From: Bacteroidota bacterium | Lineage (GTDB): Bacteria; Bacteroidota; Bacteroidia; NS11-12g; UBA9320 | Reading direction: 5' to 3' | DNA length: 64,000 bases | Assembly (NCBI GenBank): GCA_947468275.1 | Contig: CANIKO010000010.1 | Coordinates: forward strand, 13,114-77,113 | In this document: piece by piece, positions 3,029 through 59,153 of the stretch | Layout of the letters: every line of letters starts with the position of its first letter | Position numbering within the stretch: the stretch's first letter is position 1 | Program-made: the position numbers and the translations under genes | Notes under the pieces: generated by a model | What the model was told of the DNA's origin: nothing | The model's input: the letters and a program-made list of their open reading frames with translations, nothing else | The model's database searches: none

Positions 3029-4159
3029 ATGAAAGATAACCTCAATGAAAATGAAAAGAGGACAAGAAAGCGAATCGTTGTGAAACGTGATTCTTTAAAA
3101 AGCAACTCAGATAGGCCATTGGACCATAAGGTTGCTAATGAGTATTCAACAAATAACCCTAATAACACAGATAGGGCTTATAAAACTATAGAAAACAGGG
3201 AAAATGAAGGGAAGAGAAATTACCCTTCATCCTATTCCGGTGGAAACGAAAGAAAACCGTTTGACCCTAAAAGACAAAGAGGGGATGGACAAAAGCGGTT
3301 TGACTCAGGTTTTAAAAAGGAGTTTGTTGAAAATCCCCTAATGAACCATCAGTTTTTTAAAAAGCATGAAAGCAATGGAGCCGTCGCTCCTATTAGTCCT
3401 AGTGTTGTAAGAAAGGATGGTGAACTCATCCGATTAAATAAATTTATTTCGAATGCCGGTATTTGTAGTCGCAGGGAAGCGGACGAATATATTATAAAAG
3501 GGGCGATTAAAGTGAATGGTGAGATAATTACAGAATTAGGACATAAGATAAAAGCAAAAGATATTGTTGAGTATAAGGGAAAGAGAATATTTGAAGCGAA
3601 TCATGTTTATATTTTGTTAAACAAGCCAAAGGACACAATAACCACAACCAGTGATCCTGAAAACAGACCCACGGTTATGGATTTGGTTCAAAAAGCAACA
3701 GATCAACGTATATTCCCGATAGGACGTTTGGACAGGAACACAACAGGCGTTATACTTATGACTAATGATGGAGATTTTGCCCAAAAACTTTCACACCCAT
3801 CTAGCGAAGTAAAAAAAGTTTATTATGCTATTTTGGACAAACCATTAGAAAGAGAACATTTTGATAAATTAATTGATGGTGTGGAATTAGAAGATGGCCC
3901 TATGAATGTAGACGAAATTGCATATGTTGATCCTAAAGACCACACAATGATTGGAGTTGAAATACACAGTGGTAAAAATCGTGTTATTCACCGCATGTTT
4001 GAATCGTTGGGGTATAAACTTAAAAAACTAGACCGTGTTGTATATGCCGGTCTTGATAAAGGAGGTTTAAGAAGAGGTAAATGGAGATTTTTGAAATTTA
4101 ATGAGGTTCAAATGGTTCTCAATACTATTAAATACCACGATGAAAAAACCGTTAATTAA
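3029..4159 (+). CDS. rluB: rRNA pseudouridine synthase (RluB/RsuA family) with ~130-aa basic low-complexity N-terminal extension
   Basis: S4 domain (LNKFISNAGICSRREADEYIIKGAIKVNG) followed by catalytic RLDRNTTGVILMTNDG motif; true start may be internal. Confidence 0.8.
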   Translation: MKDNLNENEKRTRKRIVVKRDSLKSNSDRPLDHKVANEYSTNNPNNTDRAYKTIENRENEGKRNYPSSYSGGNERKPFDPKRQRGDGQKRFDSGFKKEFVENPLMNHQFFKKHESNGAVAPISPSVVRKDGELIRLNKFISNAGICSRREADEYIIKGAIKVNGEIITELGHKIKAKDIVEYKGKRIFEANHVYILLNKPKDTITTTSDPENRPTVMDLVQKATDQRIFPIGRLDRNTTGVILMTNDGDFAQKLSHPSSEVKKVYYAILDKPLEREHFDKLIDGVELEDGPMNVDEIAYVDPKDHTMIGVEIHSGKNRVIHRMFESLGYKLKKLDRVVYAGLDKGGLRRGKWRFLKFNEVQMVLNTIKYHDEKTVN

Positions 4160-11124: not shown

Positions 11125-11197
11125 GGTGCGGTAGCTCAGTCGGTAGAGCAAAGGACTGAAAATCCTTGTGTCGCCGGTTCGATCCCGGCCCACACCA
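11125..11197 (+). tRNA. tRNA-Phe (anticodon GAA)
   Basis: Cloverleaf: acceptor GGTGCGG/CCACACC, D-arm AGCTCAGTCGGTAGAGC, anticodon loop CTGAAAA, T-arm GCCGGTTCGATCCCGGC; no encoded CCA. Confidence 0.85.
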
Positions 11198-11205
11198 CTT
11201 TTACT

Positions 11206-11237
11206 CCCGTCATTTTTTTAATGGCGGGATTTTTTTT
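11206..11237 (+). terminator. Rho-independent terminator after tRNA-Phe
   Basis: Hairpin cccgtcatt / aatggcggg followed by T8. Confidence 0.5.
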
Positions 11238-11245
11238 ATAAAGCA

Positions 11246-12262
11246 ATGCAACCCAGAGTTTCAATAGTCATCCTAAACTACAACACCCGGCATTTTTTAC
11301 AAAAATTCCTCCCGGGAGTATTGGCTACAGATTATGAAAATTTTGAAGTGGTATTGGCAGATAATGCATCCAAAGACGATTCGGTAGAATTTGTTAAACA
11401 AAATTTCCCAACAGTAAAAATTATAACCTTAGTTGAGAACTATGGATTTGCTGGAGGTTACAACAAAGCCTTGTCGGAAGTAAAGGCAGATTATTTTGTA
11501 TTACTTAATTCTGATGTAGAAGTTCCTTCAGATTGGTTAAATCCATTAGTGGAATTGGCTGAAAGTGATTCAAAAATTGCCGCTGTTCAACCAAAACTAT
11601 TGGATTATAAGGATAAAACAAAATTTGAATATGCCGGTGGTTCAGGCGGTTTTATTGATAAATACGGATACCCGTTTTGTCGCGGAAGATGGTTTAATTA
11701 TTTAGAAACCGACAATGGTCAATACAATGATAGTCGAGAAATATTCTGGGCAACCGGTGCTTGCTTTTTAATTCGATCCAAATATTGGGAAGAAGCCAAG
11801 GGGCTAGATGAGGACTTTTTTGCCCATATGGAAGAAATAGATTTATGCTGGCGACTAAAGAATGCGGGATATAAAATTATGGTTTGCCCTCAGTCTGTGG
11901 TTTATCATGTGGGTGGCGGAACGCTGCCAGTAGGCAATCCTCGAAAAACCTATCTTAATTTTAGAAATGGGTTATTTTTATTGTGCAAAAATCTTCATAG
12001 TTCAAGGCTTTGGCAGGTTTTGTTCATCCGCTTTGTATTGGATGGATTGGCTGGTATAAAGTTTTTAACGGAGTTTAAATTCCGTGAAATAGGAGCAATT
12101 CTTAAAGCTCACATGGTTTTTTATTCGCAACTTAGGTATTGGTTAAATAAACGAAAACTTTCAGCACCGCCATCCTTGCACCCTAAAAATATGTATCAAA
12201 GGAGCATGGTTTTTGATTTTTATTTAAAAGGAAAACGAAAGTTTACGGAAACCGGTTTGTAG
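11246..12262 (+). CDS. Family 2 glycosyltransferase
   Basis: VSIVILNYNTRHFL...LADNASKDDS...LLNSDVEV DxD-type GT2 motifs. Confidence 0.8.
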   Translation: MQPRVSIVILNYNTRHFLQKFLPGVLATDYENFEVVLADNASKDDSVEFVKQNFPTVKIITLVENYGFAGGYNKALSEVKADYFVLLNSDVEVPSDWLNPLVELAESDSKIAAVQPKLLDYKDKTKFEYAGGSGGFIDKYGYPFCRGRWFNYLETDNGQYNDSREIFWATGACFLIRSKYWEEAKGLDEDFFAHMEEIDLCWRLKNAGYKIMVCPQSVVYHVGGGTLPVGNPRKTYLNFRNGLFLLCKNLHSSRLWQVLFIRFVLDGLAGIKFLTEFKFREIGAILKAHMVFYSQLRYWLNKRKLSAPPSLHPKNMYQRSMVFDFYLKGKRKFTETGL

Positions 12263-12306
12263 TTTTTTTTAACACGGAGGGACTAAGAATATGGGCTTCA
12301 CGGAGT

Positions 12307-12744
12307 TTATAAAATGTTTTCTTTGTCTAACAAATAAAGCAATCCAAGCTTATACCCTTCCAATCCCAAGCCTGAAATATTTCCTTTGCAGGCTCCCAAC
12401 AGCAAATCATGGTGGCGAGCCGTTTCACGATTGTAAATATTAGAAATATGAATACCTAAGACGGGTGATTTAATAGATTTTACAGCATCGGCAATAGCTA
12501 CGCTGGTGTGGCTATAGCCTCCGGCATTTAGTAAAATACCGTCCATTTCAAATCCCCATTCCTGTATTTTATTAATTAATTCTCCTTCAATATTACTTTG
12601 AAAATAGTGTACTACTGTTGTGTCCTTAAACTGGCTTTTAAGTTCCTTAAAGTAATCTTCAAAGGATTTATCTCCATAAATTTCCGGTTCGCGTTTGCCC
12701 AATAGATTAAGGTTGGGGCCATTTATGATTCCTATTTTTTTCAA
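12307..12744 (-). CDS. aroQ: Type II 3-dehydroquinate dehydratase
   Basis: (TTG-start) MKKIGIINGPNLNLLGKREPEIYG... canonical AroQ N-terminus; 145 aa. Confidence 0.9.
   Translation of the reverse strand: MKKIGIINGPNLNLLGKREPEIYGDKSFEDYFKELKSQFKDTTVVHYFQSNIEGELINKIQEWGFEMDGILLNAGGYSHTSVAIADAVKSIKSPVLGIHISNIYNRETARHHDLLLGACKGNISGLGLEGYKLGLLYLLDKENIL
12675..12743. repeat. Direct repeat copy 1 (aroQ 5' end, functional copy); partner at 13295-13363
   Basis: 69 bp, ~5 mismatches to 13295-13363: gttcgcgtttgcccaa[t/g]agattaaggttggggccatttatgattcctatttttttca. Confidence 0.85.
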
Positions 12745-12809
12745 ATAAAATTATTGAACCACAAAGAAACAATTTAAATAGTTTAGTGTAAATATTTTAT
12801 TTTTGATTT

Positions 12810-13058
12810 ATGATTTCAGATTATTTAAATGCTGCTATGCATCTAGCCAAATATGAATTTCTTCCAAACGACAAATTGTATTATGGCGAGATTGATGAGT
12901 TTAAAGGGCTTTATGCGAGTGCTACCAATTTAGAATTATGCCGGGATGAATTGATGTCAACTCTTGAGGATTGGGTGCTTTTCAGCATTCATAAAAATCT
13001 GCCATTACCAATTATAAATAATCTTAACTTGCAAATTAAGGATTTGGCAGATGCCTGA
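12810..13058 (+). CDS. hicB: Putative HicB-like antitoxin (UPF0150-like)
   Basis: 82 aa, overlaps downstream HicA gene by 8 bp; weak similarity to HicB/UPF0150 small antitoxins. Confidence 0.45.
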   Translation: MISDYLNAAMHLAKYEFLPNDKLYYGEIDEFKGLYASATNLELCRDELMSTLEDWVLFSIHKNLPLPIINNLNLQIKDLADA

Positions 13059-13275
13059 TTTTGGAAATATTTCCAGAAAGGACTTAATAAAGGCCTTGCA
13101 ATTACTCGGTTTTGAAGGTCCGTTTTCAGGTGGAAAACATCAATTTATGTTGAAAAGCGGATTGCGGCTTACCATTCCCAATCCCCATCAGTCAGACATT
13201 GGAATAGATTTGCTCAATAAAATTTTAAAACAAGCAGATATTTCAAAAATAGAATGGAGAAATTTAAAACTTTAA
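13051..13275 (+). CDS. hicA: HicA (YcfA-like) mRNA-interferase toxin
   Basis: 74 aa; LLGFEGPFSGGKHQFMLKSGLRLTIPNPHQSDIGIDLLNKILKQADIS matches the HicA G-(S/K)-H...IP.H....IG..L...ILKQ pattern. Confidence 0.65.
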   Translation: MPDFGNISRKDLIKALQLLGFEGPFSGGKHQFMLKSGLRLTIPNPHQSDIGIDLLNKILKQADISKIEWRNLKL

Positions 13276-13294
13276 CGTATCAAATCTTATAGAT

Positions 13295-13363
13295 CATAAA
13301 TCTCTAGTTCGCGTTTGCCCAAGAGATTAAGGTTGGGGCCATTTATGATTCCTATTTTTTTCA
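13295..13363. repeat. Direct repeat copy 2: remnant duplicate of aroQ 5' end (would encode VKKIGIINGPNLNLLGKRELEIYDL*)
   Basis: Near-identical to 12675-12743; reading frame stops after ~25 codons. Confidence 0.85.
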
Positions 13364-13690
13364 CTTGTCTCCTTTTTCTTTAGCTTTTTTCTTTAGCAAC
13401 TTTTTTATTAATTCCGATTGTTCAGCAACTAATTTAATAAGATATTTTAAAGTTGTTTTGTCTTCCTTTTCTAGCTCATTTATGGGATTAAAATCATCAA
13501 TAAAACTATCAAATTCCTCCTTTGTTATTTTTAATGCTGTAAATATTTCACTTAGTTTTTCATCATTTATAACGATTCTGTGTTCCAAATCTGAATATGC
13601 TTTTTGCGATATACCCAATTTAAGAGCTATATAGTCTTGAGAAAAATCTCCTTGTCGTCTTATTTTACGAAGTGTTTCGCCGTGGTGCAT
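13361..13690 (-). CDS. XRE-family helix-turn-helix transcriptional regulator
   Basis: 109 aa; LRKIRRQGDFSQDYIALKLGISQKAYSDLE HTH_3 motif; C-terminal Lys-rich tail. Confidence 0.7.
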   Translation of the reverse strand: MHHGETLRKIRRQGDFSQDYIALKLGISQKAYSDLEHRIVINDEKLSEIFTALKITKEEFDSFIDDFNPINELEKEDKTTLKYLIKLVAEQSELIKKLLKKKAKEKGDK

Positions 13691-13698
13691 ATTTGCTT

Positions 13699-13813
13699 GG
13701 GTATAAGTTAGAAGTAAAACTACTAACTTAGAAGTTATCCAGCTAGCTTATGCCAAAAATAAACTATTTACTTTGTTCTTGTATTGCAATACAAAAAATC
13801 AAATGCCTTGAAC
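13699..13813 (+). promoter_or_regulatory. Repeated leader element R, copy 1 (contains perfect palindrome TTGTATTGCAATACAA at 13779-13794)
   Basis: 115 bp ~93% identical to 15781-15897; lies in the divergent region between XRE regulator and Cys-rich protein gene. Confidence 0.6.
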
Positions 13814-13853
13814 AAATGATAGGCATTAAAAAAAATTTAAATTAAATACAAAA

Positions 13854-14393
13854 ATGAAAAGATTATTTAAACTCTTTGTTATAAGCAGTTTCTTATTATT
13901 CTCTTCGAATTCGTACTCAAGGGCAATTGGGACATTGATTAATGGTGTCCCAACAGTATCAGTAACAAATGAAGAATTTCAAACTCAATTGAATCTTCTG
14001 TCAAGCTGCACTTGTGGTATTTCAAATATTAACCTTGTTAGCACCTCAATAAGCTATAATCCTTCATCAGGAGGATTATTAAAACTGTCGTTTACGTGCA
14101 ATATAGCCAATGAGGTAGGGTTAATGAGAGTCAATATTACTAAGGAATTATCTTATGATAGTGGTAATAACGAATTCCATGTAATAAACGGTGGTGCAAG
14201 TAGAACTTGTATTGGTAAAAATTGTCTAAGTCGTTGTGACGTTGAAGGAGTAGGCTGTACCCCATGTGGTAGAGCCGACAATACTGAGATGCCCGCAACT
14301 TGCACAATGGCAACAGCTGAACAAGAAGGATGTATCTGGGGTTGTCTAGGAACGCTTTTTTTTGGCTGGTTAATTAGTTTATTTTGTTGCTAA
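13854..14393 (+). CDS. Secreted cysteine-rich protein (13 Cys) with hydrophobic C-terminal tail ending in CC
   Basis: Signal peptide MKRLFKLFVISSFLLFSSNSYS; C-terminal third TCIGKNCLSRCDVEGVGCTPCG...CTMATAEQEGCIWGCLGTLFFGWLISLFCC. Confidence 0.6.
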   Translation: MKRLFKLFVISSFLLFSSNSYSRAIGTLINGVPTVSVTNEEFQTQLNLLSSCTCGISNINLVSTSISYNPSSGGLLKLSFTCNIANEVGLMRVNITKELSYDSGNNEFHVINGGASRTCIGKNCLSRCDVEGVGCTPCGRADNTEMPATCTMATAEQEGCIWGCLGTLFFGWLISLFCC

Positions 14394-14453
14394 GTTTATT
14401 CTTGAGGGATACAATATCTTTCAAAGTTCTTTCTATTTCAACGTTAAAATTTT

Positions 14454-15581
14454 ATGATAAGAAAAATCTCTCTTTTTTTAGTTAACACTATACTGAGCTA
14501 CTTCCTTTCAGATATAGCTTTTTCTCAAAATATTAGAGAAGTAGAAATAAGAAATCATAATTATTTTAGTTCTACTAATCAAGTCATAGAAATTAAATAT
14601 ACATCAAAAACGAGAGATAATGCTAATTCCATCACAAGGCGTTATTTATTAAATTTAGAGAGCCTTAATAAAGGTTCTCTAAATTTAAATTATGTTGAAA
14701 ATAACTCTAAACTATATTTTAAATTTGTTAATAATGACTTGTATTTCAAACATCCTGATAGCATTAACTATATATTATTTGAACCAATAAATAAAAAAAG
14801 GAAGCCACCAAGTAATGTTTTTTTTTTAAAATATCTGCCTTTGTCTTGCACTTCCTTTTTTTTAAAAAATAGTTTTGAATCAGAGGATAGTAATTTTCAA
14901 ACTTGCGCCGGTGACACTTTTATTTTGGAACAAGTATCAAAGAAATTAGAAGTTGTACGAAAATTATACCTTGACAAAAATTTGCAGATTTTTAAAACAG
15001 AATATACTAGTACAGATTCAAATAGCCTTCAAGAAAAATGGCAATATGAATATAAAATATATAAAAATATTGAATTGAGTCAACTGGCAGATTCATTAAA
15101 ATTTGGCCCATTTAATAAAGAAAATTTTATAAAGAATAGTTATATTAATAAAGAAAGTACTATAATTTATGACGGCAAGACACATGTTCCATTGACAAAT
15201 AAAAAAACACTAATCCTTGATACAACTAAAATTAAATATTATATAATTGACTTATGGTATATAGGCTGCAAACCATGCAGTATGTTAAGACCTTATCTTG
15301 AAAAAATTTACACGAATATCGATACTTCAAAAGCAATTATGTTAGGATATAACGAATTTGATATTATGGAGGATATTAACACATATTTAAAAAGAAAAAA
15401 TTTTCAAATTCCAGAAATTGATAACTCTTCATTTTATTTGGAACAATTTCATACAAATATGCACCCTACCGTTCTTATCCTTGATAAAAAATTCAAGGTG
15501 ATAGAGACTTATGTTGGATATTCTACTTTAAATATTCTTAAAATTAGAACATTTCTCAAAGCAAAGAAATTGTTTTTGTGA
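14454..15581 (+). CDS. Secreted DUF4369-like + TlpA-like thioredoxin-fold thiol-disulfide oxidoreductase (CKPC active site)
   Basis: Signal peptide; C-terminal ~130 aa LILDTTKIKYYIIDLWYIGCKPCSMLRPYLEKIY...HPTVLILDKKFKVIETYVGY fits TlpA/AhpC-TSA fold with CxxC. Confidence 0.6.
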   Translation: MIRKISLFLVNTILSYFLSDIAFSQNIREVEIRNHNYFSSTNQVIEIKYTSKTRDNANSITRRYLLNLESLNKGSLNLNYVENNSKLYFKFVNNDLYFKHPDSINYILFEPINKKRKPPSNVFFLKYLPLSCTSFFLKNSFESEDSNFQTCAGDTFILEQVSKKLEVVRKLYLDKNLQIFKTEYTSTDSNSLQEKWQYEYKIYKNIELSQLADSLKFGPFNKENFIKNSYINKESTIIYDGKTHVPLTNKKTLILDTTKIKYYIIDLWYIGCKPCSMLRPYLEKIYTNIDTSKAIMLGYNEFDIMEDINTYLKRKNFQIPEIDNSSFYLEQFHTNMHPTVLILDKKFKVIETYVGYSTLNILKIRTFLKAKKLFL

Positions 15582-15626
15582 TAAAGACAAACTCGTTAGC
15601 ACATTTCTTGTAAAAATGCAATCCAA

Positions 15627-15786
15627 TGTCACCTATCTTTGCGGCAATGCGGCACATAGCATTTCTCCTTTTTACTTTCCCTCTTCTTTTGTTGGCACAA
15701 AACAAAGAACCTATTACTATTAATAATGCCGATTATCTGGATTTTAATAAAAACTATGCCAATGCCGAGCGGTTAGTAGTGGTATA
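15627..15786 (+). pseudogene. Duplicated 5' fragment of the OstA-like gene at 17429 (MSPIFAAMRHIAFLLF...NKNYANAERLVVV*)
   Basis: ~165 bp (15615-15780) ~88% identical to 17418-17582; frame terminates inside repeat R copy 2. Confidence 0.75.
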
Positions 15787-15897
15787 AGTTAGAAGTAAAA
15801 ACTACTAACTTAGAAGTTATCCAGCTAGCTTATGCCAAAAATAAACTATTTTCTTTGTTCTTGTATTGCCATACAAAAAAAAGGAAGAGCCTTGAAC
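15781..15897 (+). promoter_or_regulatory. Repeated leader element R, copy 2 (imperfect palindrome TTGTATTGCCATACAA at 15861-15876)
   Basis: Aligns to 13699-13813 with one 1-bp indel and a divergent 8-bp patch. Confidence 0.6.
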
Positions 15898-15934
15898 CTT
15901 TTAGATGGGCGTTAAAAATTTAAAAAAAATTATT

Positions 15935-16654
15935 ATGAACTTTTTTAAAAAATTATCTATACCCTTTCTTCTTTCTTTTACCCTAATTTTTACAGAATGT
16001 AAGAAAGAAGCTATCACTGATGTAAATTACTCTGAAATTAAAACTCCTGAACAACTGCTTGATTCCCCAAATGATCCTATAAATGAAAATATGTATTATG
16101 TAAAGGATTTTAATTTTCATTTGGATGGAGTTCCTGTGGCATATGAAACAATAGATTCGCTTTTTGATAATATATTGTACTCGGATTTTCCTGACACATT
16201 AAATGTATTTTGCTTTACAAATCTTGCTGCTTTTGATGATTACTTAACAGGAAATCCTAATAAAGCAGATGTATTAAAGGATATAAATGATATGGATAGT
16301 ATTGCGGCATTAATTCCTGACTCTTTAGATGATGAAATGAAATCTCCTGTAAAGGTAATCCCAGGTCAAATTGCACTTCTAAATGGGTCGTATTCGATTT
16401 CTGGTTTTGATATGCCAACTCCAACCACTAATGGAGACGGATTTACATCATGGACGCCTAAACTTAATCTTGGAAGTATGAATAATCGTGTAACTGGAAT
16501 TACTTTTTGGGCAATTACTGGTTCATTTTCGGTTTGGTGTACAAAGAAAAATTTCAAAGGAATGAAAAATTTCTATTGGGGATTTCCCTTTTTTGGAGGA
16601 AGATATATTTTAACAGATGTTAGATGGAACAATAATTTCATGTCTGTTTATTAG
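15935..16654 (+). CDS. Hypothetical lipoprotein
   Basis: MNFFKKLSIPFLLSFTLIFTEC lipoprotein signal; no recognised domain. Confidence 0.5.
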   Translation: MNFFKKLSIPFLLSFTLIFTECKKEAITDVNYSEIKTPEQLLDSPNDPINENMYYVKDFNFHLDGVPVAYETIDSLFDNILYSDFPDTLNVFCFTNLAAFDDYLTGNPNKADVLKDINDMDSIAALIPDSLDDEMKSPVKVIPGQIALLNGSYSISGFDMPTPTTNGDGFTSWTPKLNLGSMNNRVTGITFWAITGSFSVWCTKKNFKGMKNFYWGFPFFGGRYILTDVRWNNNFMSVY

Positions 16655-16717
16655 GGTTATAGATAATTTATAGTATTAAAAGTTAATGTGTAAATTGGCA
16701 TTGTAAATAAAAGTGTA

Positions 16718-17359
16718 ATGACTAAGGTAAAAAAAACAGTATTATTTTTTACAATTATTTTTCAATTTATCGCAATGAGGAGTTTTTGTAATGATACTTC
16801 TAATCTTAAAAAGTCCCAATTAAAAACCAAAAATTTTTACATTGGAATTCTGCTTGCACCTGCATATTTAGGTGGCTATGAGCAAAAATCTTTAGGAAAA
16901 AAATCAGGCCATATACCTTTTTTGTATAATCTAGGAAGTATTTTTTCTGAATACACTATCCTTAATAGGTATTCAGTTTTTGCAGGTTTTTCCTACGGTT
17001 ATAATTACTTCAGAGACACTATTAATGTCGGAAGCCTTGGTGGAACTTGTGGATTAAGATATAATATTCCACTTACAACAAAAAAGAAAAAGGAAGAAAA
17101 TAAACCAACATTACTTTATGCGCAAATTGGGCTTGGTTACACTAAAGGTTATTATTATAATGCCCCTAATTTAATAAGAATAAACAGACAAATAGAATGT
17201 TTTGGTCTAAACTTAGGTGTGAGTTTTATCCCATCTAAATTGTTTAAAAAAGCAAATTCTAATTTTATTATTGATTATTCAGTTGTCAAACCTTTTTATA
17301 ATGTGAAAAATAAAGAAGATCAATTTTTCGGTGGATTTGGAATTAAGTATAAGATTTAA
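16718..17359 (+). CDS. Putative outer-membrane beta-barrel protein
   Basis: Signal peptide, alternating aromatic/Gly-rich strands (GFSYGYNYF, GLGYTKGYYYN), C-terminal GGFGIKYKI. Confidence 0.4.
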   Translation: MTKVKKTVLFFTIIFQFIAMRSFCNDTSNLKKSQLKTKNFYIGILLAPAYLGGYEQKSLGKKSGHIPFLYNLGSIFSEYTILNRYSVFAGFSYGYNYFRDTINVGSLGGTCGLRYNIPLTTKKKKEENKPTLLYAQIGLGYTKGYYYNAPNLIRINRQIECFGLNLGVSFIPSKLFKKANSNFIIDYSVVKPFYNVKNKEDQFFGGFGIKYKI

Positions 17360-17363
17360 TCTA

Positions 17364-17402
17364 AAGAAAAGCTTACAATTTTTTGTAAGCTTTTCTTTTT
17401 TG
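17364..17402 (+). terminator. Rho-independent terminator
   Basis: Perfect 13-bp stem gaaaagcttacaa/ttgtaagcttttc, 4-nt loop, T-run. Confidence 0.7.
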
Positions 17403-17428
17403 AATATTGCTTTTTTAAATCCAATGCA

Positions 17429-18934
17429 ATGTTTCCTATCTTTGCCGCAATGCGGATACTAGCATTTCTTATTTTTTGTTTTCCGGTTCTTTTGTTGGCA
17501 CAAGACAAAGAACCCATTACTATTAACAACGCCGATTATCTGGATTTTAATAAAAACTATGCCAATGCTGAGCGCTTGGTAGGCCATGTGAGTATGAGCC
17601 AAGGCAATATGACCCTAACCTGCGACAGTGCCTGGTTTTGGAAAGATGAAAACAAAATGGAAGCGTTTGGTCATGCGTTTTTAAACCAATCGGGAGGAAC
17701 CATGGTGTGGAGCGACTACATGTTGTATAACGGCAATACCAAAATGGCCAGCGCCCAGCGCAATGTGAGAATGACTGACGGAAAAATGAGCCTAACCACA
17801 GATGCCATTCAATACGATGTAACCAATAAAATAGCCTATTATACCACCGGTGGAAATATTAAAGATGGCGAAAATACCATGACCAGCCGCTCGGGAAGTT
17901 ATTATTCCAAAAGCCGGGAGTATTTTTTTAAAGGAAAAATAAAATTGGTAAACCCCGAATATACAATGACAAGTGATACCTTGAATTATAACGGAAATAC
18001 AGAAACCGCTTATTTCTTTGGGCCAACGTATATAACAAGTACCGATAATCTTCTTTTTTGCAACTATGGCTGGTATGATACCAAAAAAAATACCTGTCAG
18101 TTTAGCAAACGAGCCTATATATTGAGTAAGGAAAACCGAATTGATTCAGACAGTTTTTTATACAATCGCAATACGGGCATTGGTCGGGCATTTGGAAATA
18201 TTACCTTGACCGATACGGTTCAAAAAATTGTAATTAAAGGCAAAAAAGGAATTCACAAGCGCTTTGAAAAAACTACTTTGGTTAGCGGGAATGCTATAGC
18301 CTTTAAAAAACTAGAAGATGATTCTCTGTTTATAAAAGCCGATTATTTTTTTGATAAACTGGATACTGCCAGCAAAAAAAGAACTTTAGCAGCTTATGGT
18401 GGTGCCAAAATTTTTAAACCTGATTTGCAAGGAATGGCGGATAGTTTAAGTTATTCTTTAACCGATTCGGTCATTCGGTTTTTTAAAGAACCTGTACTAT
18501 GGAACGAAGCCAATCAAACCACCGGCGATACTATTTTTATTTTTCAGAAAGGAAAAACCATTGACAGAATGGTGGTGTTGCAAAATGCAATGGTGGTAAT
18601 GGAAGATGCCCCGGGATTATACAATCAGATAAAAGGCAAAAAACTGTATGGATTGTTTGCAAAAAACAAATTGTACAGGGTAAATGTGCGTGGCAACGGG
18701 CAAAGTGTGTATTATGCCAAAGAAAATGAAAATAAATATTCGGGTGTAAATTATGTGGAATGCACCAATATGATTATAGCCATTGATTCTAATAAGGTTA
18801 AAAAAGTAACTTTTTTGGTGTCGCCCAAAAGCACCTTTTATCCTATTGATAAATTTCCGGCCGAACGGGCCAAACTTCGGGGGTTTAGCTGGCTGATAGA
18901 AAAACGTCCCAAACGGAAAGATTTCGAGTTTTAG
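17429..18934 (+). CDS. OstA-like (LptD N-terminal/LptA-fold repeat) periplasmic protein
   Basis: 501 aa; signal peptide then repeated OstA_N-like beta-jellyroll segments (MTLTCDSAWFWKDENKMEAFGHAFLNQ...); Bacteroidetes 'OstA-like protein' family. Confidence 0.65.
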   Translation: MFPIFAAMRILAFLIFCFPVLLLAQDKEPITINNADYLDFNKNYANAERLVGHVSMSQGNMTLTCDSAWFWKDENKMEAFGHAFLNQSGGTMVWSDYMLYNGNTKMASAQRNVRMTDGKMSLTTDAIQYDVTNKIAYYTTGGNIKDGENTMTSRSGSYYSKSREYFFKGKIKLVNPEYTMTSDTLNYNGNTETAYFFGPTYITSTDNLLFCNYGWYDTKKNTCQFSKRAYILSKENRIDSDSFLYNRNTGIGRAFGNITLTDTVQKIVIKGKKGIHKRFEKTTLVSGNAIAFKKLEDDSLFIKADYFFDKLDTASKKRTLAAYGGAKIFKPDLQGMADSLSYSLTDSVIRFFKEPVLWNEANQTTGDTIFIFQKGKTIDRMVVLQNAMVVMEDAPGLYNQIKGKKLYGLFAKNKLYRVNVRGNGQSVYYAKENENKYSGVNYVECTNMIIAIDSNKVKKVTFLVSPKSTFYPIDKFPAERAKLRGFSWLIEKRPKRKDFEF

Positions 18935-49379: not shown

Positions 49380-50039
49380 ATGAAAAAAATATTTACTCTT
49401 ATTGGACTGTTAATTTGTTTGAATAGTTACTCGCAATCTGTATTTGTGCCGGCATCGGCCTACAATTCTCATTTTTGTTCTGAATTTGATATTACTGTTC
49501 ACAGTAAATTTACCAATAAGTTTGTTACTAATAAACTTGAATTTATAAGAATTCAAAAAACGGTAACCTCTAATTGGACCACTGCCTATTGTGATTGTGA
49601 ATTGTGTCACGATATAAATACAGATACTGGAAAATTTTCTGTTGCCATTGGCCAAACCTGTGAAACTTCAGCGCATTTTTATCCTGATGGAGCCAAAGGT
49701 ATAGGGTATATAAAAATTAAAGTTTTTCCTGAAGGCGACCCTGCTAATTTTGTAATAGGTGAATACAGTGCTAGCTGCTGGGGTGTTTCGGCCACGTTTA
49801 TCGAAAACCAAAAATTAGCAGTTTCCCCAAATCCTGCCAATACAGTTTTAAACATTGGTTTTGGTGCGGGAGGTGAGTATACCATCAGTATTATAAACAC
49901 CGAAGGAAAAGTAATTGTAAATGAAAAAGTAGAAAATTTAGTAAACACTTTAGATATTTCTAACTTTAACTCAGGCTTATATTCCGTAAAAATAGAAAGT
50001 GCCGGAAAGGTATTTTATTCTAAATTTATAAAGCTTTAA
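49380..50039 (+). CDS. Small secreted protein with T9SS type A C-terminal sorting domain
   Basis: Signal peptide; CTD VSPNPANTVLNIGF...GLYSVKIESAGKVFYSKFIKL. Confidence 0.65.
   Translation: MKKIFTLIGLLICLNSYSQSVFVPASAYNSHFCSEFDITVHSKFTNKFVTNKLEFIRIQKTVTSNWTTAYCDCELCHDINTDTGKFSVAIGQTCETSAHFYPDGAKGIGYIKIKVFPEGDPANFVIGEYSASCWGVSATFIENQKLAVSPNPANTVLNIGFGAGGEYTISIINTEGKVIVNEKVENLVNTLDISNFNSGLYSVKIESAGKVFYSKFIKL
49965..50039 (+). repeat. 75-bp near-identical repeat (CTD 3' end), partner at 54570-54644
   Basis: 1 mismatch over 75 bp while upstream CTD sequence is divergent. Confidence 0.85.
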
Positions 50040-50668: not shown

Positions 50669-50729
50669 CGTTTAATAGAAAATCTTGGTTTGTCATTTGA
50701 CAATTACTCTGAATAAATTTATTCAATCT

Positions 50730-53700
50730 ATGCTTCGTTTTATCTGGGCGTTTTTATTAATATTTTTGATACAATTATGCCCTTTCAAATCAACAGCAGA
50801 AATAAATAAAATTTATGGAGATGCATCTTTAACCTATTTTAAATCTAATGCTGGACAGTGGGATAAAGATGTTCATTACAGGCTTATCAGTAATGGATAT
50901 GCAATTAGTTTTTTTAACAATAAAGTATCTTTTGCTATAAGCCGACAATCTGATGATAAGATACAAAATACTTTTAAAGAAAAATTAAAACTACCAGAAC
51001 TAGATTATTTAGTTTGGGAAATTGTCTTTGAAGGTTCTGAACACTGCATTCCAATTGGAGAAGGAAATATCCCTTCTATTTATCGTTTTTTTGGTAACGG
51101 TTCCTGTAATGGTAAAACTATAGATTTATTTAAAAAAATAGTTTACAAAAATATTTATCCTCAAACCGACCTCGTATTTTATGTTGATTCCAAAAAGCAA
51201 ATTAAATATGATTTTATTCTTCATCCTGGAGGCGATATTTCTAAAATTAAAATGAAATATAATGGAATTGAGGGCTTGAAATTAAATGAACACAACGATT
51301 TGAATATTAAAACGGTATGGGGTGATTTTAAAGAAAACACGCCTTTTTCTTTTCAACAAATTAATGGGCAAGAAATGATTGTAGATGTTAAATATTTTTT
51401 GGCCAATAATAATACATTAACTTTTGAATCTATTAAGGATTTGGATAGAACAAAAACTTTAATTATTGACCCTGTTCTATTAGACTGGAGTACCTATTTT
51501 TATGGAAATTCACGATTTAATATAGATAATTCAAATCAAATTGTACAATATGTTGGTGGGGTAGATATTGACTCTAAAGGGTACACGTATGTTGCAGGAA
51601 CAACCAATCAAGATTTTCCAAAAATACCAGGGTTACACAACTCAAAACCAGGTAATTTTCCTTCAAGTAAGACGGATGCTTATTATTGTAAAATATCTCC
51701 AAAAGGCGATTCGTTTTTGTTTTTTAATTATTTGGGAGGAGCTAATAATGATATGGTTAATACGCTTCATATTAATTCAAAAGAAGAAGCTGTAATAACA
51801 GGTTATGGAGGACCTGGATTCCCATTCACTAAAGGAGCTTTGGATACTAATTACGGAGGTTTTGTAACAACATTTAATAGCACAGGCGATTCCATAAGAT
51901 TTTCAACATTCTTTCATCCATTTTCGGGAAATAATGCAATTATTACAGAATCGGGCGAAGTAATTATTGCAGGGGCGTGTTCAGGAGGAATGTTAGTTAC
52001 TTCGGGTGCTTATCAAAATAAATATCAAGGAGGATCAGTTGATGGTTTTGTTGCAAAAATAAAGTCAGATGGTAAAAGTCTATCTTTTTCAACCTATATC
52101 GGTGGAGATGATATGGAAGAAATTTATGGTATTAGTATTAATTCAAAAGAAGATATTTATTTAGTAGGTTACACACGCTCAAACAATTTCCCAATAAATA
52201 CATCTAATAATTCTTTTAAATACTTAAAAGGTGGTGCAGATGGATTTTTACTAAAATTGGATAATAGCGGCTCAAAAGTTCTTTTTAGCGATGTTATTGG
52301 GGGTAGCTATGATGATTTTTTGCAAAGTATTTTTATAAATCCCAAAGAAGAAATATTTGTTTCAGGTTTTACCAATTCTAATAATTTTCCAGTAAGTGTT
52401 TATCCTATTGCACATCAAGCTTCAAACGCAGGTAAATATGATCTTGTTGCAATGAAGTTTTTACCCAATGGTTCTAACTACAAGTATTCAACCTACATTG
52501 GAGGAAGTGATAATGAATATTGTAATAATTGGATTAATGGCATGATTACCCAAATAGCAGTAAATGCAAAGGATGAAGCGATAATTATGGGGGTTAGCCA
52601 ATCTAACGATTTTCCGGTGACAAGTGATGCGCTTCAAAAAACGAATAAGGCAAAAGCGAAAATACAAGAACCGCTTAATTTAACATTAACAAAGTTATCC
52701 TTTGGAGGTGATAAATTGATTTATAGTACTTATTTTGGAGGAGGTTATTCCGATAATTTATTATCTGGACGAATTAAACGATTTAATTGTGTCACAAATA
52801 TTGTAATCGCAGGAGCCACAATGTCACGCGATTTCCCTACAACTACTGGAAGTATATACCCAAATGCACCAAAGGATACTTTATTTGGCAATGGAAAACA
52901 TTTCACATACGCTTATGTGAGTTTCATTTCCAAATTTTCAGATACACTAAAAGTTGAGAAACCAAGTTTTGGCAATAGAACTAAAACTCGGTGCAATGAT
53001 TTTTTAGAGATATTGGACGGATTAAATCAGGGAAGTTATAGGCGGTGGAGCACGGGTGACAGCAGCCAGTTTCTTTTGGTAAATAAAGCGGGCACCTACT
53101 GGGTAGCAACCACCTATGGCTGCGATACAATTCGCGACAGCATTACCATTATTAACCCAATTAATAAAGCTAATTTTACGATTTTGGATACGGCCCAATG
53201 CCTAGCCGGAAATAGTTTTACATTTAAAGAAACTACACAATTTAAAAATACAAAGCATAAAGAAAGTAGTTGGTATTTTGATGATAGCACCAGTATAATG
53301 GATACTATTGCCAAAAAATCATTTACCACACCCGGCATTCATTTTATAAAACTAGTATCTCAAAGTACCGCTGATTGCATGGATTCCATCACCACAACAG
53401 TTCATGTGTACCCCAATACACAACCCAATTTTGTTATTAACGATACATCTCAATGTTTAAAAAATCAAAACTTTAATTACACGAACACCTCTACCGACAC
53501 CGGCAAAATAAGCTACCAATGGGATTTGGGCGACCAAACCTTTAGCAACCAAAAAAATATTTCAGCTAAAACCTATCTAAAAGACAGCAGCTATGTTATT
53601 AAACTTATAAGCACCACCGACAAAAATTGTGAGGATACAGCTACCAAAATAATCTCGATAAAACCAAGCCCCGTGGCTGATTTTAAATGGGATATAGCCT

Positions 53701-54644
53701 GTAGCCGAACCGTCACAAATTTTAAATACACCGGTTCAAAACCTATTCAATCATTTCACTGGAATTTTAACAACGAAGCCACTTCCACCCTCGAAAATCC
53801 CTCCCATAAATTTGCCGCCGCAGGAACCTCAATCTCAACCTTAACCTTAACCTCAAGCAACGGATGCTCTGATACGCTTAAAAAATCCATTGACATAAAA
53901 CCCCAATCGCAAGCCGATTTTACGACCCAAGATGTGTGTGAAAACACCACCACAGATTTTGTAAATACATCCAAAGATGCCACAAGCTATAATTGGAAAT
54001 TTGGAGATGGAAATACCTCCAATCTTCAATCCCCCAAACACCAATATCAAATCAGCGGAAAATCTACTACCTTTAATGTTACCTTGGTAGCCATAGTAGC
54101 CAATGGTTGTTCCGATTCCATAAGCAAAGCCACCACAGTAAATGCCAATCCAAGCGCAGATTTTAGCTATACCACCGGCGGCAAGCAAGTAAATTTTACA
54201 GCTACCGAAACCGCAGCTACCCTATACCAATGGACTTTTGGCGATGGAGGAACCGTCAATACCGCAACCCCAAAAACCACTTACAACTACACCAAATTTC
54301 CTTCAGGCAAATACACCGCTTGCCTCAAAGTTATCAATGCCGCCAACTGTTTTTCAGAATCGTGCAAGGAAATTGTTATTACAGGTGGCATTGCAAACCT
54401 CTCAGAAAAAAGCTTTAAAATTTACCCCAATCCCAACAATGGAAGTTTTACCATTGAAATTGAAAATCCTGAAAACGATGGAATAATTAGTATTTACAAT
54501 ACGATAGGGATGCAAATTAAAACTATAGAAACCAATTCATCCCAAAGCCAATATTTAATAAAATTAGATTTTAACTCAGGATTATATTCCGTAAAAATAG
54601 AAAGTGCCGGAAAGGTATTTTATTCTAAATTTATAAAGCTTTAG
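50730..54644 (+). CDS. Large secreted protein with SBBP-like beta-propeller repeats, multiple PKD-like domains and T9SS type A C-terminal sorting domain
   Basis: Likely start MLRFIWAFLL at 50730; repeated ...FTxxxxCxxxxFxFxNTS...WxFGDG... PKD signatures; CTD KIYPNPNNGSFTIEI...GLYSVKIESAGKVFYSKFIKL. Confidence 0.75.
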   Translation: MLRFIWAFLLIFLIQLCPFKSTAEINKIYGDASLTYFKSNAGQWDKDVHYRLISNGYAISFFNNKVSFAISRQSDDKIQNTFKEKLKLPELDYLVWEIVFEGSEHCIPIGEGNIPSIYRFFGNGSCNGKTIDLFKKIVYKNIYPQTDLVFYVDSKKQIKYDFILHPGGDISKIKMKYNGIEGLKLNEHNDLNIKTVWGDFKENTPFSFQQINGQEMIVDVKYFLANNNTLTFESIKDLDRTKTLIIDPVLLDWSTYFYGNSRFNIDNSNQIVQYVGGVDIDSKGYTYVAGTTNQDFPKIPGLHNSKPGNFPSSKTDAYYCKISPKGDSFLFFNYLGGANNDMVNTLHINSKEEAVITGYGGPGFPFTKGALDTNYGGFVTTFNSTGDSIRFSTFFHPFSGNNAIITESGEVIIAGACSGGMLVTSGAYQNKYQGGSVDGFVAKIKSDGKSLSFSTYIGGDDMEEIYGISINSKEDIYLVGYTRSNNFPINTSNNSFKYLKGGADGFLLKLDNSGSKVLFSDVIGGSYDDFLQSIFINPKEEIFVSGFTNSNNFPVSVYPIAHQASNAGKYDLVAMKFLPNGSNYKYSTYIGGSDNEYCNNWINGMITQIAVNAKDEAIIMGVSQSNDFPVTSDALQKTNKAKAKIQEPLNLTLTKLSFGGDKLIYSTYFGGGYSDNLLSGRIKRFNCVTNIVIAGATMSRDFPTTTGSIYPNAPKDTLFGNGKHFTYAYVSFISKFSDTLKVEKPSFGNRTKTRCNDFLEILDGLNQGSYRRWSTGDSSQFLLVNKAGTYWVATTYGCDTIRDSITIINPINKANFTILDTAQCLAGNSFTFKETTQFKNTKHKESSWYFDDSTSIMDTIAKKSFTTPGIHFIKLVSQSTADCMDSITTTVHVYPNTQPNFVINDTSQCLKNQNFNYTNTSTDTGKISYQWDLGDQTFSNQKNISAKTYLKDSSYVIKLISTTDKNCEDTATKIISIKPSPVADFKWDIACSRTVTNFKYTGSKPIQSFHWNFNNEATSTLENPSHKFAAAGTSISTLTLTSSNGCSDTLKKSIDIKPQSQADFTTQDVCENTTTDFVNTSKDATSYNWKFGDGNTSNLQSPKHQYQISGKSTTFNVTLVAIVANGCSDSISKATTVNANPSADFSYTTGGKQVNFTATETAATLYQWTFGDGGTVNTATPKTTYNYTKFPSGKYTACLKVINAANCFSESCKEIVITGGIANLSEKSFKIYPNPNNGSFTIEIENPENDGIISIYNTIGMQIKTIETNSSQSQYLIKLDFNSGLYSVKIESAGKVFYSKFIKL

Positions 54645-55462: not shown

Positions 55463-58400
55463 ATGAAAAAAAGGTGTCTTTTTTTATTTGTTTTTGGGAT
55501 AAGTATGTTAATTGCAAATTTAACGTATGCTCAACCCAGATATGTAACTCCACAAGAAGGTTTTCGAGAACTTTTTTTGCCACTTACACGAGGGATTCCT
55601 AGTGCCCCTATTCTGTATGAAATGAACTTACATGAACTGGAAGATACTTTTTATAGGGCTATATGCCATAAATCAATTGATGCTGATGGGTGGATTACCT
55701 TAATGAATACGCTTTGGTGGTGTGCTTATGATACCCTTGATGTGCCCGATATGTCAGTAATGGAAGATACAGTTGAAAAAATTATTAAGGCCGACCCTTT
55801 AATGGTACCTATTGGCATAGCGGCATACGATTATCATAGATATAATGAAAATGTTTTTAATGTAAACGGAGAGTACTTTGATTGGACGGATAGTACAATT
55901 GTAGATCATGCTGGACGCATAGAGCCATTTGATGTAAATCCATTTGACCTGTCGAGAGGTATTCTGCAAGACTTATTTAGTGCATCCCCCCTTGTTACAT
56001 CTCATCCTTATAAAAAAGTTAAATACAGGCTTGATCCTTATTTTTTTAATTTTGGATTATCTACTTTAGTAGGCTTACCTACTACTTTTACTTGGAAAAT
56101 TGACTTTGGTGATGGTAATGGATTTATAACTTTTGATCCATCATCTTTAATTATTCAAGAAGTTAATTATACTAGTGGGGGAATAAAAACATTAACGGTT
56201 CAGGTTGAAAAAGATGCTGTTCCTATAGCCATTTCAGTTTCCGAAATCTACATTGAAGGGTTTGATAAATTAGTGCCAAATGAGAATATTAAAGTAGGTA
56301 ATGTAAATGCCGACCTTTTTACAGCTTGCAATTCATCGGGGAAACTGGTAATGGTTGTTACGGGATTTGACCCTTTGGGAACAAATACAAATGAAAAGAC
56401 TGCAAATAATTTAATTATAAATTCAAAAATAAATATGCTATTAAATTATGGTTATGATATAGCTGTTGTTGAATTTACAGAACCACACACCGGGATATTA
56501 GCTTTGGCCGATGAACTAATTGAATTTATTGAACATATGAAATGCCGTTATGATAATGACCACCCATTTGTTATTTTTAGTTCAAGTTTAGGTGGCCCCG
56601 TGACACGGGTAGCCCTTACAAAAATGGAAAAAACTGATTATATGACTGCTGCATTTGCTAATGCATCCATATGCAATCCTTTACGTATGCATAATACACG
56701 TCTTTGGATAAGCCTAGATGGTGAAATGGATGGGGCAAATGTTCCTATTGGACTGCAAGAATCAATAAAAGGAAGTGTGGAGGTAGCTAATTTTATTGAA
56801 GGATTAGGGAAAATAAAAACAGGTATGGGTGTAATGCTTCGGCAGGTTAAAAGAATAAAAATGCAAGAAAAATTTGATAAGGCGATAGCAAACCAAACCG
56901 CTCGTGAATTATTTAGTGTTCATGTGGATACTAAAAACGGCATGAATGAATATACTCACGACCCTGAATTTGACACAACATGGGCAGAGATAAGAGCACT
57001 CAACCCTGCCACAAATGGGTATCCTAAGTATTGTAAAAAAGTTGCATTATCTAACGGTTTATTTGACGGAAAAAGACAGGTAGCAATTGGTGATAGAGTA
57101 GCGCAAGGTGGTGATACTATGAATTTTTTAAGCATGAATACAAAATTGCGATATCAAAGATTTAACCCGCTATACCTATCGTTTACAACCATGCATTATG
57201 CCTATTATTTGGCTCCCAATTTTGCTACAGACACTGTTTCTCGCATTCATGTATCTGTAAATAAAGTTAATTTCAAGAAACTAATGAAGGCTATCGCTGC
57301 TTCTATTGCTTTAAATTCAACTTCCCCTTTTAATGCTATTTATAATACTCATGTATTTGATAGAACCGCAATAATGAATAACGACAGCCATAAAAGTTGG
57401 GATATTGTAGGTGGAGGCCGCGAGGGGCATTGGGTTTCAGAATTAAAAAGTGTTCCACCAGGTTTTAACATTAATCCAATAACCTTAAGACCATTTAAAA
57501 AGTTTCCGGGTTTAGGCTACACCATTTTTGACATAAATACAAGTCTTGATACTGTAAATGGATTTTTTGCAGCCACAACAGGTTGGCCAATAGAGTATTT
57601 TAACTTAAACAGCCGATGTGTGGCTACCGATTGGACACTTGCTTATACCAAAAACACCTTTGATATGGTAAGAACGGGTTTTGATACCGATATGGAAAGC
57701 GAAGGAATAGACAGCAACTTAGCCCGAACCCCTTTTGATGTAATAATAGCCGGAGTTACCAATGCTAATTACCCCAAAACATGGAGCAGCACGGGTGGCC
57801 GCCCCTATTGGCACAGAAGTGTGAGAACAACAGAAGCTGATAATGGAGCAGGTGATAATCTTACAATGATTGTTAGGGAAATTGGCGATAAGTATCATTA
57901 TTTAGATAACAGAATAGTAAACCGCACGGAGATGTACAGATGCCATGATAGTATTGTTGCTGGAAGTTCTTCAAATCCAAAATATTATTATGCGCTTGGA
58001 AGTCCAGCCGGAAAATATCCTGCATTGCAATCAAAAACAAATCAATTCAATGTAGTTGATAGTGGCTTTTTACATTTAATAAGTACCCGCGAAATAATAT
58101 TACGGCCTGGTTTTAATGTACTTGATAGTGGCGAAATGATAGCCGAAATAGACTCGGTTCCGGTTTGCAATTTAACCTATGAAGAGATAACAGAAATAAT
58201 GCAAACGGAATTTGGTGCCTCCCCTTTAAAATTAGATGCCCTACCCAATGATGAACTGAAAAAAAGGGAAGGATTTAAATTATATCCCAATCCGGCAGGT
58301 AAAGTGGTGAATCTAATTGGAAGCTCAGTCAATTTTGAAGCAACGTTTATTGATTCACATGGAAAGAATATCAACAAATATCGAGGATGGAAATCAATAG

Positions 58401-59148: not shown

Positions 59149-59153
59149 CCAAG

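Follow-up and report, generated by a model that had tools for sequence, protein, structure and literature searches.

A hicBA toxin-antitoxin module between two copies of the aroQ gene start in a Bacteroidota genome: a probable scar of old additive recombination

A stretch of 64,000 nucleotides from a Bacteroidota bacterium (GTDB lineage Bacteroidia; NS11-12g; UBA9320; assembly GCA_947468275.1, contig CANIKO010000010.1, positions 13,114 to 77,113), here called the window, contains a hicBA toxin-antitoxin (TA) gene pair that lies between two direct copies of the 5' end of the neighbouring aroQ gene. The intact aroQ gene occupies 12307-12744 on the minus strand and encodes, from a TTG start, a type II 3-dehydroquinate dehydratase of 145 aa (Pfam DHquinase_II, 7.1e-49; NCBIfam NF003807, 168.5 bits with a cut-off of 130). 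Its first 23 codons, corresponding to nt 2-70 of the gene, are present twice, as a proximal copy at 12675-12743, which was the reference copy of the repeat search, and as a distal copy at 13295-13363 on the minus strand, which represents a displaced aroQ 5' end. The copies are 69 nt long and identical at 65 positions. A first-pass annotation made from the letters alone had given the same coordinates and length, with about five mismatches where the repeat search counted 4. The 551 bp between the copies (12744-13294) hold only two open reading frames (ORFs), hicB and hicA, and the ORF list therefore agreed with the earlier description of the insert as a small overlapping pair of 82 and 74 aa. 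Based on the comparisons below, the arrangement is probably an old scar of additive recombination, of the long-target-duplication type, by which an intact hicBA module was added at a recombination hotspot.

The cassette reaches only 66 nt beyond the operon on its upstream side and 19 nt on its downstream side. The divergent aroQ-hicB intergenic region (12745-12809) is linked to the cassette and is 83% conserved relative to the metagenomic contig L007, and the approximately 40 nt nearest aroQ align weakly to the upstream region of aroQ on another contig, L013. Just ahead of the hicB ATG, the octamer TATTTTTG at 12798-12805 fits the Bacteroidetes -7 box TAnnTTTG and is a candidate promoter element. 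The hicB gene (12810-13058, plus strand) and the hicA gene (13051-13275, plus strand) share 8 nt, the hicA start overlapping the hicB stop (ATGCCTGA). A spacer of 19 nt (13276-13294), with 9 of 19 aligned positions identical to L007, leads from the hicA stop to the junction with the distal repeat copy. This copy forms most of a 25-codon stub ORF (13287-13364) that keeps the aroQ frame and by itself still matches DHquinase_II; its GTG overlaps the TGA of a gene for a 109-aa XRE-family HTH regulator (13361-13690, minus strand; HTH_3, 6.6e-8) as GTGA. The proposals of the first pass that the repeat is the aroQ 5' end and that its distal copy is an in-frame aroQ start remnant over the XRE stop were both borne out.

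The repeat is not a product of chance, because direct repeats of at least 45 nt, when sought throughout the window, fell into only eight families, of which three lie in the island between aroQ and ostA described below, four come from one tandem paralogue pair and one is a shared 3' gene end. Moreover, an assembly artefact is excluded. Of the 24 contigs (listed in 42 index blocks) on which the XRE protein was read, 23 share a similar neighbourhood, and another lineage has a homologous arrangement on no fewer than four independent ENA contigs.

Profile searches placed both small ORFs in the families that had been suggested for them, each above its cut-off. The hicB product matched PF21748 (UPF0150-like) at 2.4e-24 and 85.4 bits (cut-off 27.3), which was its only Pfam domain (residues 4-67), and it matched Thermus thermophilus TTHA0281 (PDB 2DSY, 87 aa) at 7.7e-12 in phmmer. 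The hicA product matched PF07927 (HicA_toxin) at 8e-11 and 42.3 bits (cut-off 27), with profile positions 2-58 of 58 covered, and 465 HicA homologues were found. In the alignment of a 22-member HicA subfamily, the residues G27, G28, K29, H30, P43, P45 and H46 were invariant; H30 of the 74-aa protein may correspond to the catalytic histidine of characterised HicA proteins. A profile built from this alignment reached PDB 1WHZ (70 aa) at 1.1e-3; phmmer of HicA alone against the PDB had returned only a spurious match to an ETV6 repeat. Plasmid homologues with 53-57% identity carry the NCBI/PGAP labels HicA family toxin and HicB family antitoxin, and the HicA matches of the plasmid search were confined to two cyanobacterial records. 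No HicA match was obtained in the phage collection searched, and no HicA relative above 69% identity in the JGI metagenomes.

Because 78 of 80 metagenomic loci with HicA relatives of 56-69% identity hold a window-type HicB-like ORF directly upstream of hicA, hicBA is, as far as these sequences indicate, a conserved two-gene module, and its antitoxin is predicted to be devoid of the DNA-binding domain of canonical HicB. Indeed, no C-terminal RHH/HTH (ribbon-helix-helix/helix-turn-helix) domain, as found in canonical autoregulating HicB, was present in the 82-aa protein (Pfam covers residues 4-67), and the protein was for this reason grouped with stand-alone short HicB proteins such as TTHA0281. 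Autoregulation of this HicBA pair, if any, would consequently occur by other means. The pair resembles the HicAB/HicBA type II systems in its HicA_toxin match above cut-off, its UPF0150/HicB-like partner, its overlapping small genes and its invariant G-G-K-H, but differs from them in that the antitoxin gene comes first and HicB has only 82 aa without the C-terminal RHH/HTH, as is apparently also the case in the 78 of 80 relatives with a window-type HicB. Between the window and the metagenomic contigs L005-L008, the nonsynonymous divergence (dN) of hicBA was 0.06 and the synonymous divergence (dS) about 1.1 (dN/dS about 0.05), which indicates that both genes have long been under purifying selection. 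The pair is predicted to be an intact type II TA module in which HicA, a small RNase-type toxin, would be neutralised by the short HicB. As a TA module, hicBA is unremarkable and adds one more member to a known family.

In a collection of 5.8 billion proteins, the XRE protein had just two clusters of homologues, and it is therefore of little use for tracing the locus widely. One homologue (89% identity) is found on the Logan contig L003, in which XRE is coupled in translation to a full-length aroQ by an overlap of its stop with the aroQ start as GTGA (…GACAAGTGAAAAAAATAGG…) and the same GT2 gene follows aroQ on the other strand. In BLAST, positions 11169-12743 and 13295-13813 of the window aligned to L003, nothing in L003 matched 12744-13294, and a single 69-mer of L003 (nt 439-507) matched both repeat copies of the window. 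The same single-copy alignment of both copies, with the insert absent, was obtained in L012-L014. The uninterrupted XRE-aroQ junction that the first pass had suggested looking for thus exists in L003, and hicBA is therefore an insertion polymorphism. The alternative that the repeat is a regulatory element conserved upstream of aroQ did not hold, as the repeat is single-copy coding sequence in L003 and in L012-L015.

Every HicA homologue with at least 81% identity was examined. The closest relative outside the source genome (P0004, 89% aa identity) was encoded on the ENA contigs L005-L010, six in all. The length of at least four (L005-L008) is sufficient to recognise the same locus, with GT2, aroQ on the minus strand, hicB and hicA. 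Moreover, a second copy of the aroQ start follows 17 nt past hicA in the three that were scanned for repeats (L005, L007 and L008), and the two longer contigs of this lineage run on into an XRE-like gene. Nucleotide identity between the window and L005-L008 was 75-80% in the flanks and 83-84% in hicBA, and the proportion of synonymous differences (pS) was 0.58 in hicBA, 0.52 in aroQ and 0.74 in GT2. The first pass had regarded the insertion as recent, a view with which the same junction in a lineage so diverged does not agree; the insertion is old, since it is common to two well-separated lineages that are near saturation at silent sites. Contig L003, which is without the cassette, is nearer to the window (85-88% nt identity) than the occupied L005-L008, which suggests that its empty state arose by secondary loss or allele exchange.

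The alignment of all aroQ starts revealed two upstream types, each of which is found alone in single-copy genomes. The XRE-linked type reads GTG AAA AAA and overlaps the XRE stop in L003, and reads ATG AAA ATA after a spacer of about 106 nt in L012; the XRE-less type reads TTG AAA AAA in L013 and L014. In both occupied lineages, the stub is the XRE-linked type of its own lineage (GTG AAA AAA as in L003, or ATG AAA ATA as in L012), and the spacer of the L007 stub is homologous to that of L012. In both occupied lineages the live aroQ begins with TTG AAA AAA, the start of the XRE-less L013 and L014, and has an upstream region that is 83% conserved between the two lineages. One boundary of the repeat falls exactly at the aroQ start codon; because the two upstream types diverge at this point, it is a mere limit of homology. 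The other boundary, at nt 70 (…ATTTATG), is joined to the poorly conserved spacer of 17-19 nt behind hicA (9/19 identities between lineages). Close to this distal end, both stubs read …A GAG ATT TAT and the live copies …G GAA ATT TAT GG, and the variant shared by the stubs argues for a single origin of the junction.

The 5' two-thirds of each stub shares lineage variants with its own live copy (GCA, CCA, CTC and CTT in L007; AAT in the window), and the stub is about 84% identical between the lineages, compared with 47% for the adjacent spacer and more than 50% difference at synonymous sites. We attribute this pattern to gene conversion, by which the live copy, itself under constraint, may have kept the stub similar. 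Selection acting on the stub is less likely, because neither a terminator nor a stable structure was found and the L007 stub is frameshifted. No terminator-like site was predicted in 12200-13900, including the space between hicA and the stub, and RNA folding of the stub region gave no stable structure (z-scores 0.2-0.6), so that a terminator or RNA-structure role of the stub was rejected. The L007 stub contains indels, one of them at the start-codon end, and a 1-nt deletion shifts its frame. In general, the aroQ stub is no longer coding.

A rival explanation is that the stub persists because it has a function. Read-through mRNA of hicBA would be antisense, over 65 of 69 nt, to the aroQ translation start, read-through from XRE would be antisense to hicBA, expression of the TA pair would thereby be tied to aroQ, and selection would keep the two copies matched. 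The conservation of the stub against its spacer and against synonymous sites, the co-variation of the copies within each lineage and the absence of a predicted terminator behind hicA would all agree with such a function, but gene conversion is the simpler account of the same pattern, no stable RNA structure was predicted and the L007 stub has an indel at the very end that holds the start codon. We consider this explanation very unlikely.

In L013 and L014, aroQ and a 501-aa OstA_2/LptD_N-like gene, here called ostA, are direct divergent neighbours, with a spacer of 87 nt in L013. In the window, the two genes are separated by 4.65 kb of accessory DNA, an island in the order aroQ, hicBA, aroQ stub, XRE, first copy of a second repeat, p179 and p375, truncated ostA, second copy of the second repeat, p249 and p213, and full-length ostA. 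Three nested direct-repeat pairs occur in this island, namely 69 nt of the aroQ start with 94% identity, an 83-nt core upstream of XRE with 98% and 184 nt at the ostA start with 84%. The second pair consists of a copy in the XRE upstream region (13693-13800), whose core at 13716-13798 is 98% identical to 15798-15880, and a copy at 15776-15882 that abuts the truncated ostA copy with a junction at about 15779/15780. The third pair consists of the truncated copy at 15596-15779 (plus strand), which holds 30 nt of upstream sequence and the first 154 nt of the ostA gene, and the segment 17399-17582 of the full-length gene (17399-18934, plus strand; coding sequence 17429-18934; OstA_2, 1.9e-47), to which it is 84% identical. 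The second and third pairs bracket two unrelated cargo pairs, p179 with p375 (13854-15581, plus strand) and p249 with p213 (15905-17359, plus strand); the former comprises a Cys-rich protein with a hydrophobic N-terminus and a protein with a weak Thioredoxin_2 match, and the latter had no match in Pfam.

Over 154 compared positions, the truncated ostA copy has 11 differences from the L013 allele and 21 from the full-length gene of the window. Where the window and L013 genes differ (14 sites), the truncated copy is L013-like at 11 and window-like at 1 (11 of 12 informative sites; p=0.006). This grouping with the L013 allele indicates that the ostA duplication joined two alleles and did not copy a local target. 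Exchange between lineages is also apparent in the flanks. The contigs L003 and L013 are close to each other there (GT2 94.7% nt identity, dS 0.22), yet the XRE island is present in L003 only, and along aroQ and GT2 they are 93-100% identical except at nt 75-150 of aroQ (L013 about 4075-4150), where identity falls to 77%. In the ostA-like gene of L012 (1-1407), the first approximately 400 nt are 91-97% identical to the window and the remainder 74-85%; this 5' patch is, judging from the identity profile, a mosaic import at the edge of the island. An import of the L012-like ostA 5' end into the window was rejected, since L012 is the recombinant and the window gene keeps its usual identity of about 91% to L013 over the full length. 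The aroQ-ostA interval is thus a probable recombination hotspot that is reshaped by exchange between lineages. The conserved gene starts on its two sides would act as recombination anchors for the variable island, and additive events there would leave truncated starts.

Several further features of the island were observed. The divergent 75-nt patch of L013 directly follows the conserved 69-nt block and looks like a recombination tract that ends at the repeat end of the window. Upstream of the ostA start, a 33-nt stretch of the truncated copy (15599-15631) is 100% identical to L012 1558-1590, although the genomes are about 73% identical overall. It holds an imperfect hairpin, GGCAnATTT-CTTGT-AAAAATGCC, and is also present in the aroQ-ostA spacers of L013 (about 3908-3940) and L014 (about 3918-3950), but is not conserved upstream of the full-length ostA of the window; it may be an operator or a terminator. 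The cargo next to XRE varies by lineage (13854-15581 in the window; 1599-3384 in L012), each version pairing a larger protein with a small, apparently secreted one whose N-terminus is hydrophobic. The p179 protein is Cys-rich, the weak thioredoxin-like match of p375 includes a CxxC motif, and p144 of L012 has a CPTCG motif. This variable cargo could represent a polymorphic secreted-peptide locus under XRE control.

The allele differences of the two gene starts bear on a purely local origin, according to which the aroQ start was duplicated in place by slippage or unequal crossing-over beside a pre-existing hicBA, all hicBA-less genomes being secondary deletions. Occupancy in two deep lineages could indeed be ancestral, and recombination between the repeats would yield exactly the junctions of L003 and L012. 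Nevertheless, the two copies carry start and upstream types that are separate in single-copy genomes (GTG or ATG with XRE, TTG without), the parallel truncated copy of ostA belongs to another allele than the resident gene, and L013 and L014 show no trace of the cassette, with an ostA-aroQ spacer of about 87 nt as measured in L013. A local origin is therefore held to be unlikely.

The neighbouring genes between 8.7 and 21.2 kb include no recombinase, and the insert ends have no significant terminal inverted repeats, only weak AT-rich matches. The first pass had read the locus as a cassette that duplicated its target. This stands in so far as the repeat is target sequence and an empty site exists; its transposon sense is doubtful without a recombinase or convincing inverted repeats, and the different starts of the two copies, the two neighbouring repeat pairs and the different alleles of the ostA copies are further evidence against it. 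The corresponding explanation, a recent transposon-like jump of the TA pair with a 69-bp target-site duplication made by staggered cleavage and fill-in, could draw on direct repeats of target sequence, an empty site and boundaries that hug the operon. On the other side, the same insertion is present in a lineage in which 58% of the hicBA synonymous sites differ, by which a recent date is largely refuted; the copies differ at 4 of 69 positions and in their start codons; one boundary is set by homology at the start codon; the neighbouring ostA repeat copies are different alleles; and neither a transposase nor convincing terminal inverted repeats are present. A length of 69 bp is, moreover, far beyond that of target duplications made by transposases. 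Such a jump is highly improbable. Nor does the cassette fit an ordinary DNA transposon or insertion sequence: the insert holds two ORFs, both of them for TA proteins, and the repeat length is not fixed (69 nt here, 27-156 nt in relatives). It does not fit an integron cassette either: the repeat is aroQ coding sequence and not an attC-like palindrome, there is no integrase among the neighbouring genes, and repeat-bracketed relatives share no end motif, no dedicated attC-model search having been made.

Integrative elements typically duplicate the end of their target gene and bring a replacement copy with them. A larger element with an attachment (att) site in the aroQ 5' end might accordingly have restored the gene start and then decayed to hicBA, or might have been moved by an integrase acting in trans. 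The different, cassette-linked start and upstream region of the intact copy in both lineages would fit such site-specific integration, as would a tRNA gene in the vicinity. It is opposed by the absence of an integrase or recombinase among the genes at 8.7-21.2 kb, by island boundaries that consist of three unrelated repeat pairs instead of one att core, by repeat-bracketed relatives that have unrelated repeats and no common end motif, and by a cassette of just 551 bp in both lineages. Site-specific integration is, on balance, improbable. The tRNA-Phe(GAA) gene at 11125-11198, the sole match in the Rfam search of the window, lies between a TPR gene and GT2, 1.5 kb from the island; its position is kept in L003, and it adjoins none of the repeats.

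Among the more distant metagenomic relatives, loci were scored by the best direct repeat in the 300-nt flanks of the unit, with a score of at least 25. By this measure, 9 of 52 hicBA pairs (17%) were bracketed by direct repeats, compared with 1 of 725 arbitrary positions of the same size on the same contigs (p about 1e-10) and 4 of 184 other ORFs of 200-900 nt on these contigs (2%; odds ratio 9.4, p=2e-4). The bracketing repeats are gene ends in L082 (the 58 nt that close a 342-aa ORF, 100% identical) and L077, and lie just upstream of the next gene in L119, L122, L112 and L075. Over all positive loci, including those scored with flanks of 500 nt, the repeats are 27-156 nt long and unrelated in sequence, and no cassette-end motif was shared across the 12 repeat-bracketed loci. 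The bracketing fits illegitimate events, preferential survival of repeat-bracketed addiction inserts or both, with no site-specific system. These data are suggestive of a long-repeat insertion style that is common in this hicBA subfamily, the evidence being heterogeneous.

In addition, direct repeats (score 42) in L052 (625-990) and L054 (2193-2558) flank another small ORF immediately upstream of hicBA, which suggests that small cassettes nearby were acquired by the same route. In L061 (2474-3442), the hicBA repeats are permuted: upstream, the repeat precedes a motif X (GCCAAATTGAAAACTTCATGGC), and downstream, X precedes the repeat. The L061 arrangement is not accounted for by simple target duplication.

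The additive recombination that we favour would have proceeded as follows. DNA with hicBA and a further aroQ start (a TTG preceded by its own upstream region) would have undergone homologous recombination within aroQ and an illegitimate joining at nt 70 of the resident aroQ, the one coupled to XRE. The distal copy would then be the old aroQ start, formerly coupled in translation to XRE through GTGA and severed at nt 70, and the event would involve no transposase or integrase reaction. Equivalent forms would be homology-facilitated illegitimate recombination or the Campbell integration of a 620-bp circle. Illegitimate-looking joints are seen at 13294/13295 and at about 15779/15780. Recombination between the repeats could later delete the cassette and restore the XRE-aroQ junction; TA addiction would select against such loss, and this may explain the persistence of repeat-bracketed cassettes.

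Several points weigh against this reading. Among the HicA homologues with at least 81% identity, no donor genome was found that has hicBA directly upstream of aroQ without the stub. Furthermore, the aroQ of the window shows no mosaic boundary or donor tract relative to L007 but is native-like throughout, so the homologous arm is not visible. As to polarity, the mirror event, the entry of an XRE block into a hicBA-aroQ genome, would be as possible as the entry of hicBA into an XRE-aroQ genome, and the empty site of L003 could be ancestral or a secondary deletion. The lineage variants common to both copies would equally fit separate recombinational introductions in each lineage. The bracketed loci elsewhere are of mixed nature, three having multi-copy dispersed repeats and one lying in a YD-repeat gene, and all the relatives are metagenome contigs or metagenome-assembled genomes, many of them short.

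The arrangement resembles the insertion with long target duplication (ILTD) that has been described for restriction-modification (R-M) gene units (Nobusato et al. 2000; Furuta, Abe & Kobayashi 2010, PMC2853133). In line with the definition of Furuta et al. 2010, a complete gene unit lies in an insert of less than 20 kb (551 bp), is flanked by repeats of more than 30 bp (69 nt) and contains no mobility genes, and both repeat copies align to a single copy in insert-less relatives (L003; L012-L014). The likeness extends to the addiction-type character of the small unit, to repeat lengths that vary between insertions and to repeats that often overlap gene ends. Unlike the described cases, which are R-M systems, the hicBA insertion is old, and its two repeat copies have different start-codon types. 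The authors linked ILTD to DNA breakage by the restriction enzyme (PMC2853133), a rationale that is inapplicable here, as HicA belongs to an RNase family. In a review of the mobility of R-M and TA systems, long target duplication is ascribed to R-M systems only (PMC3874152).

Homology-facilitated illegitimate recombination is reported to produce displacement arrays of orphan T6SS (type VI secretion system) immunity genes and displaced rhs/CDI (contact-dependent inhibition) tips (Kirchberger et al. 2017, PMC5361080). In these arrays, as apparently in the window, cargo is added at the edge of a variable region through a conserved flank, a truncated fossil is left behind and events are stacked. 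The fossils of the window, however, are the 5' ends of housekeeping genes on both sides of the island, and not 3' toxin tips downstream of a conserved core. Furthermore, a ParDE-like TA module of Microcystis aeruginosa PCC 7806 is enclosed by a pair of identical 152-bp direct repeats (Klemencic et al. 2021, PMC7935541). It is likewise a chromosomal type II TA pair with long direct repeats some tens to about 150 bp from the genes, but it belongs to another TA family, and its repeats are described there as intergenic with an inverted repeat, whereas the hicBA repeat is the coding start of a neighbour.

Elsewhere in the window, two other repeat structures were recorded. A 74-nt direct repeat, 99% identical (49965-50038 and 54570-54643), forms the 3' ends, i.e., the last approximately 24 codons and the stop, of two ORFs that are otherwise dissimilar, 49380-50039 (219 aa) and 50685-54644 (1319 aa); it could be a common C-terminal module, or a recent conversion or insertion scar. 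A tandem duplication with a period of 850 nt (58294-59148 and 59144-59998) contains the paralogous 219-aa ORFs 58489-59148 and 59339-59998, its segments being 73-86% identical.

In conclusion, the locus offers a clean natural example, with empty sites, of a housekeeping gene start that was duplicated and displaced as accessory genes joined, and its three stacked scars form a record of successive events in one intergenic hotspot. For annotation, it is a warning that the 25-codon aroQ stub and a 61-codon ostA stub (ATG at 15626; ostA homology over the first 51 codons) are gene fossils and that the live aroQ starts at TTG. The findings also provide evidence for long-repeat-bracketed insertion in a TA family whose toxin does not cut DNA. 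Given that 17% of hicBA pairs and 2% of other small ORFs are bracketed, the signature would stem from addiction and selection or from general illegitimate recombination, and not from restriction breaks. As a more tentative and rather doubtful extension, short-HicB/HicA cassettes may belong together as a class of selfish units that lack a recombinase and spread by ILTD, with the displaced aroQ start as an antisense link between the TA module and aroQ as a further twist. If so, ILTD would be a general route, or a signature of survivorship, for addiction modules, and the repeats would allow excision of the cassette as a circle and its re-integration.

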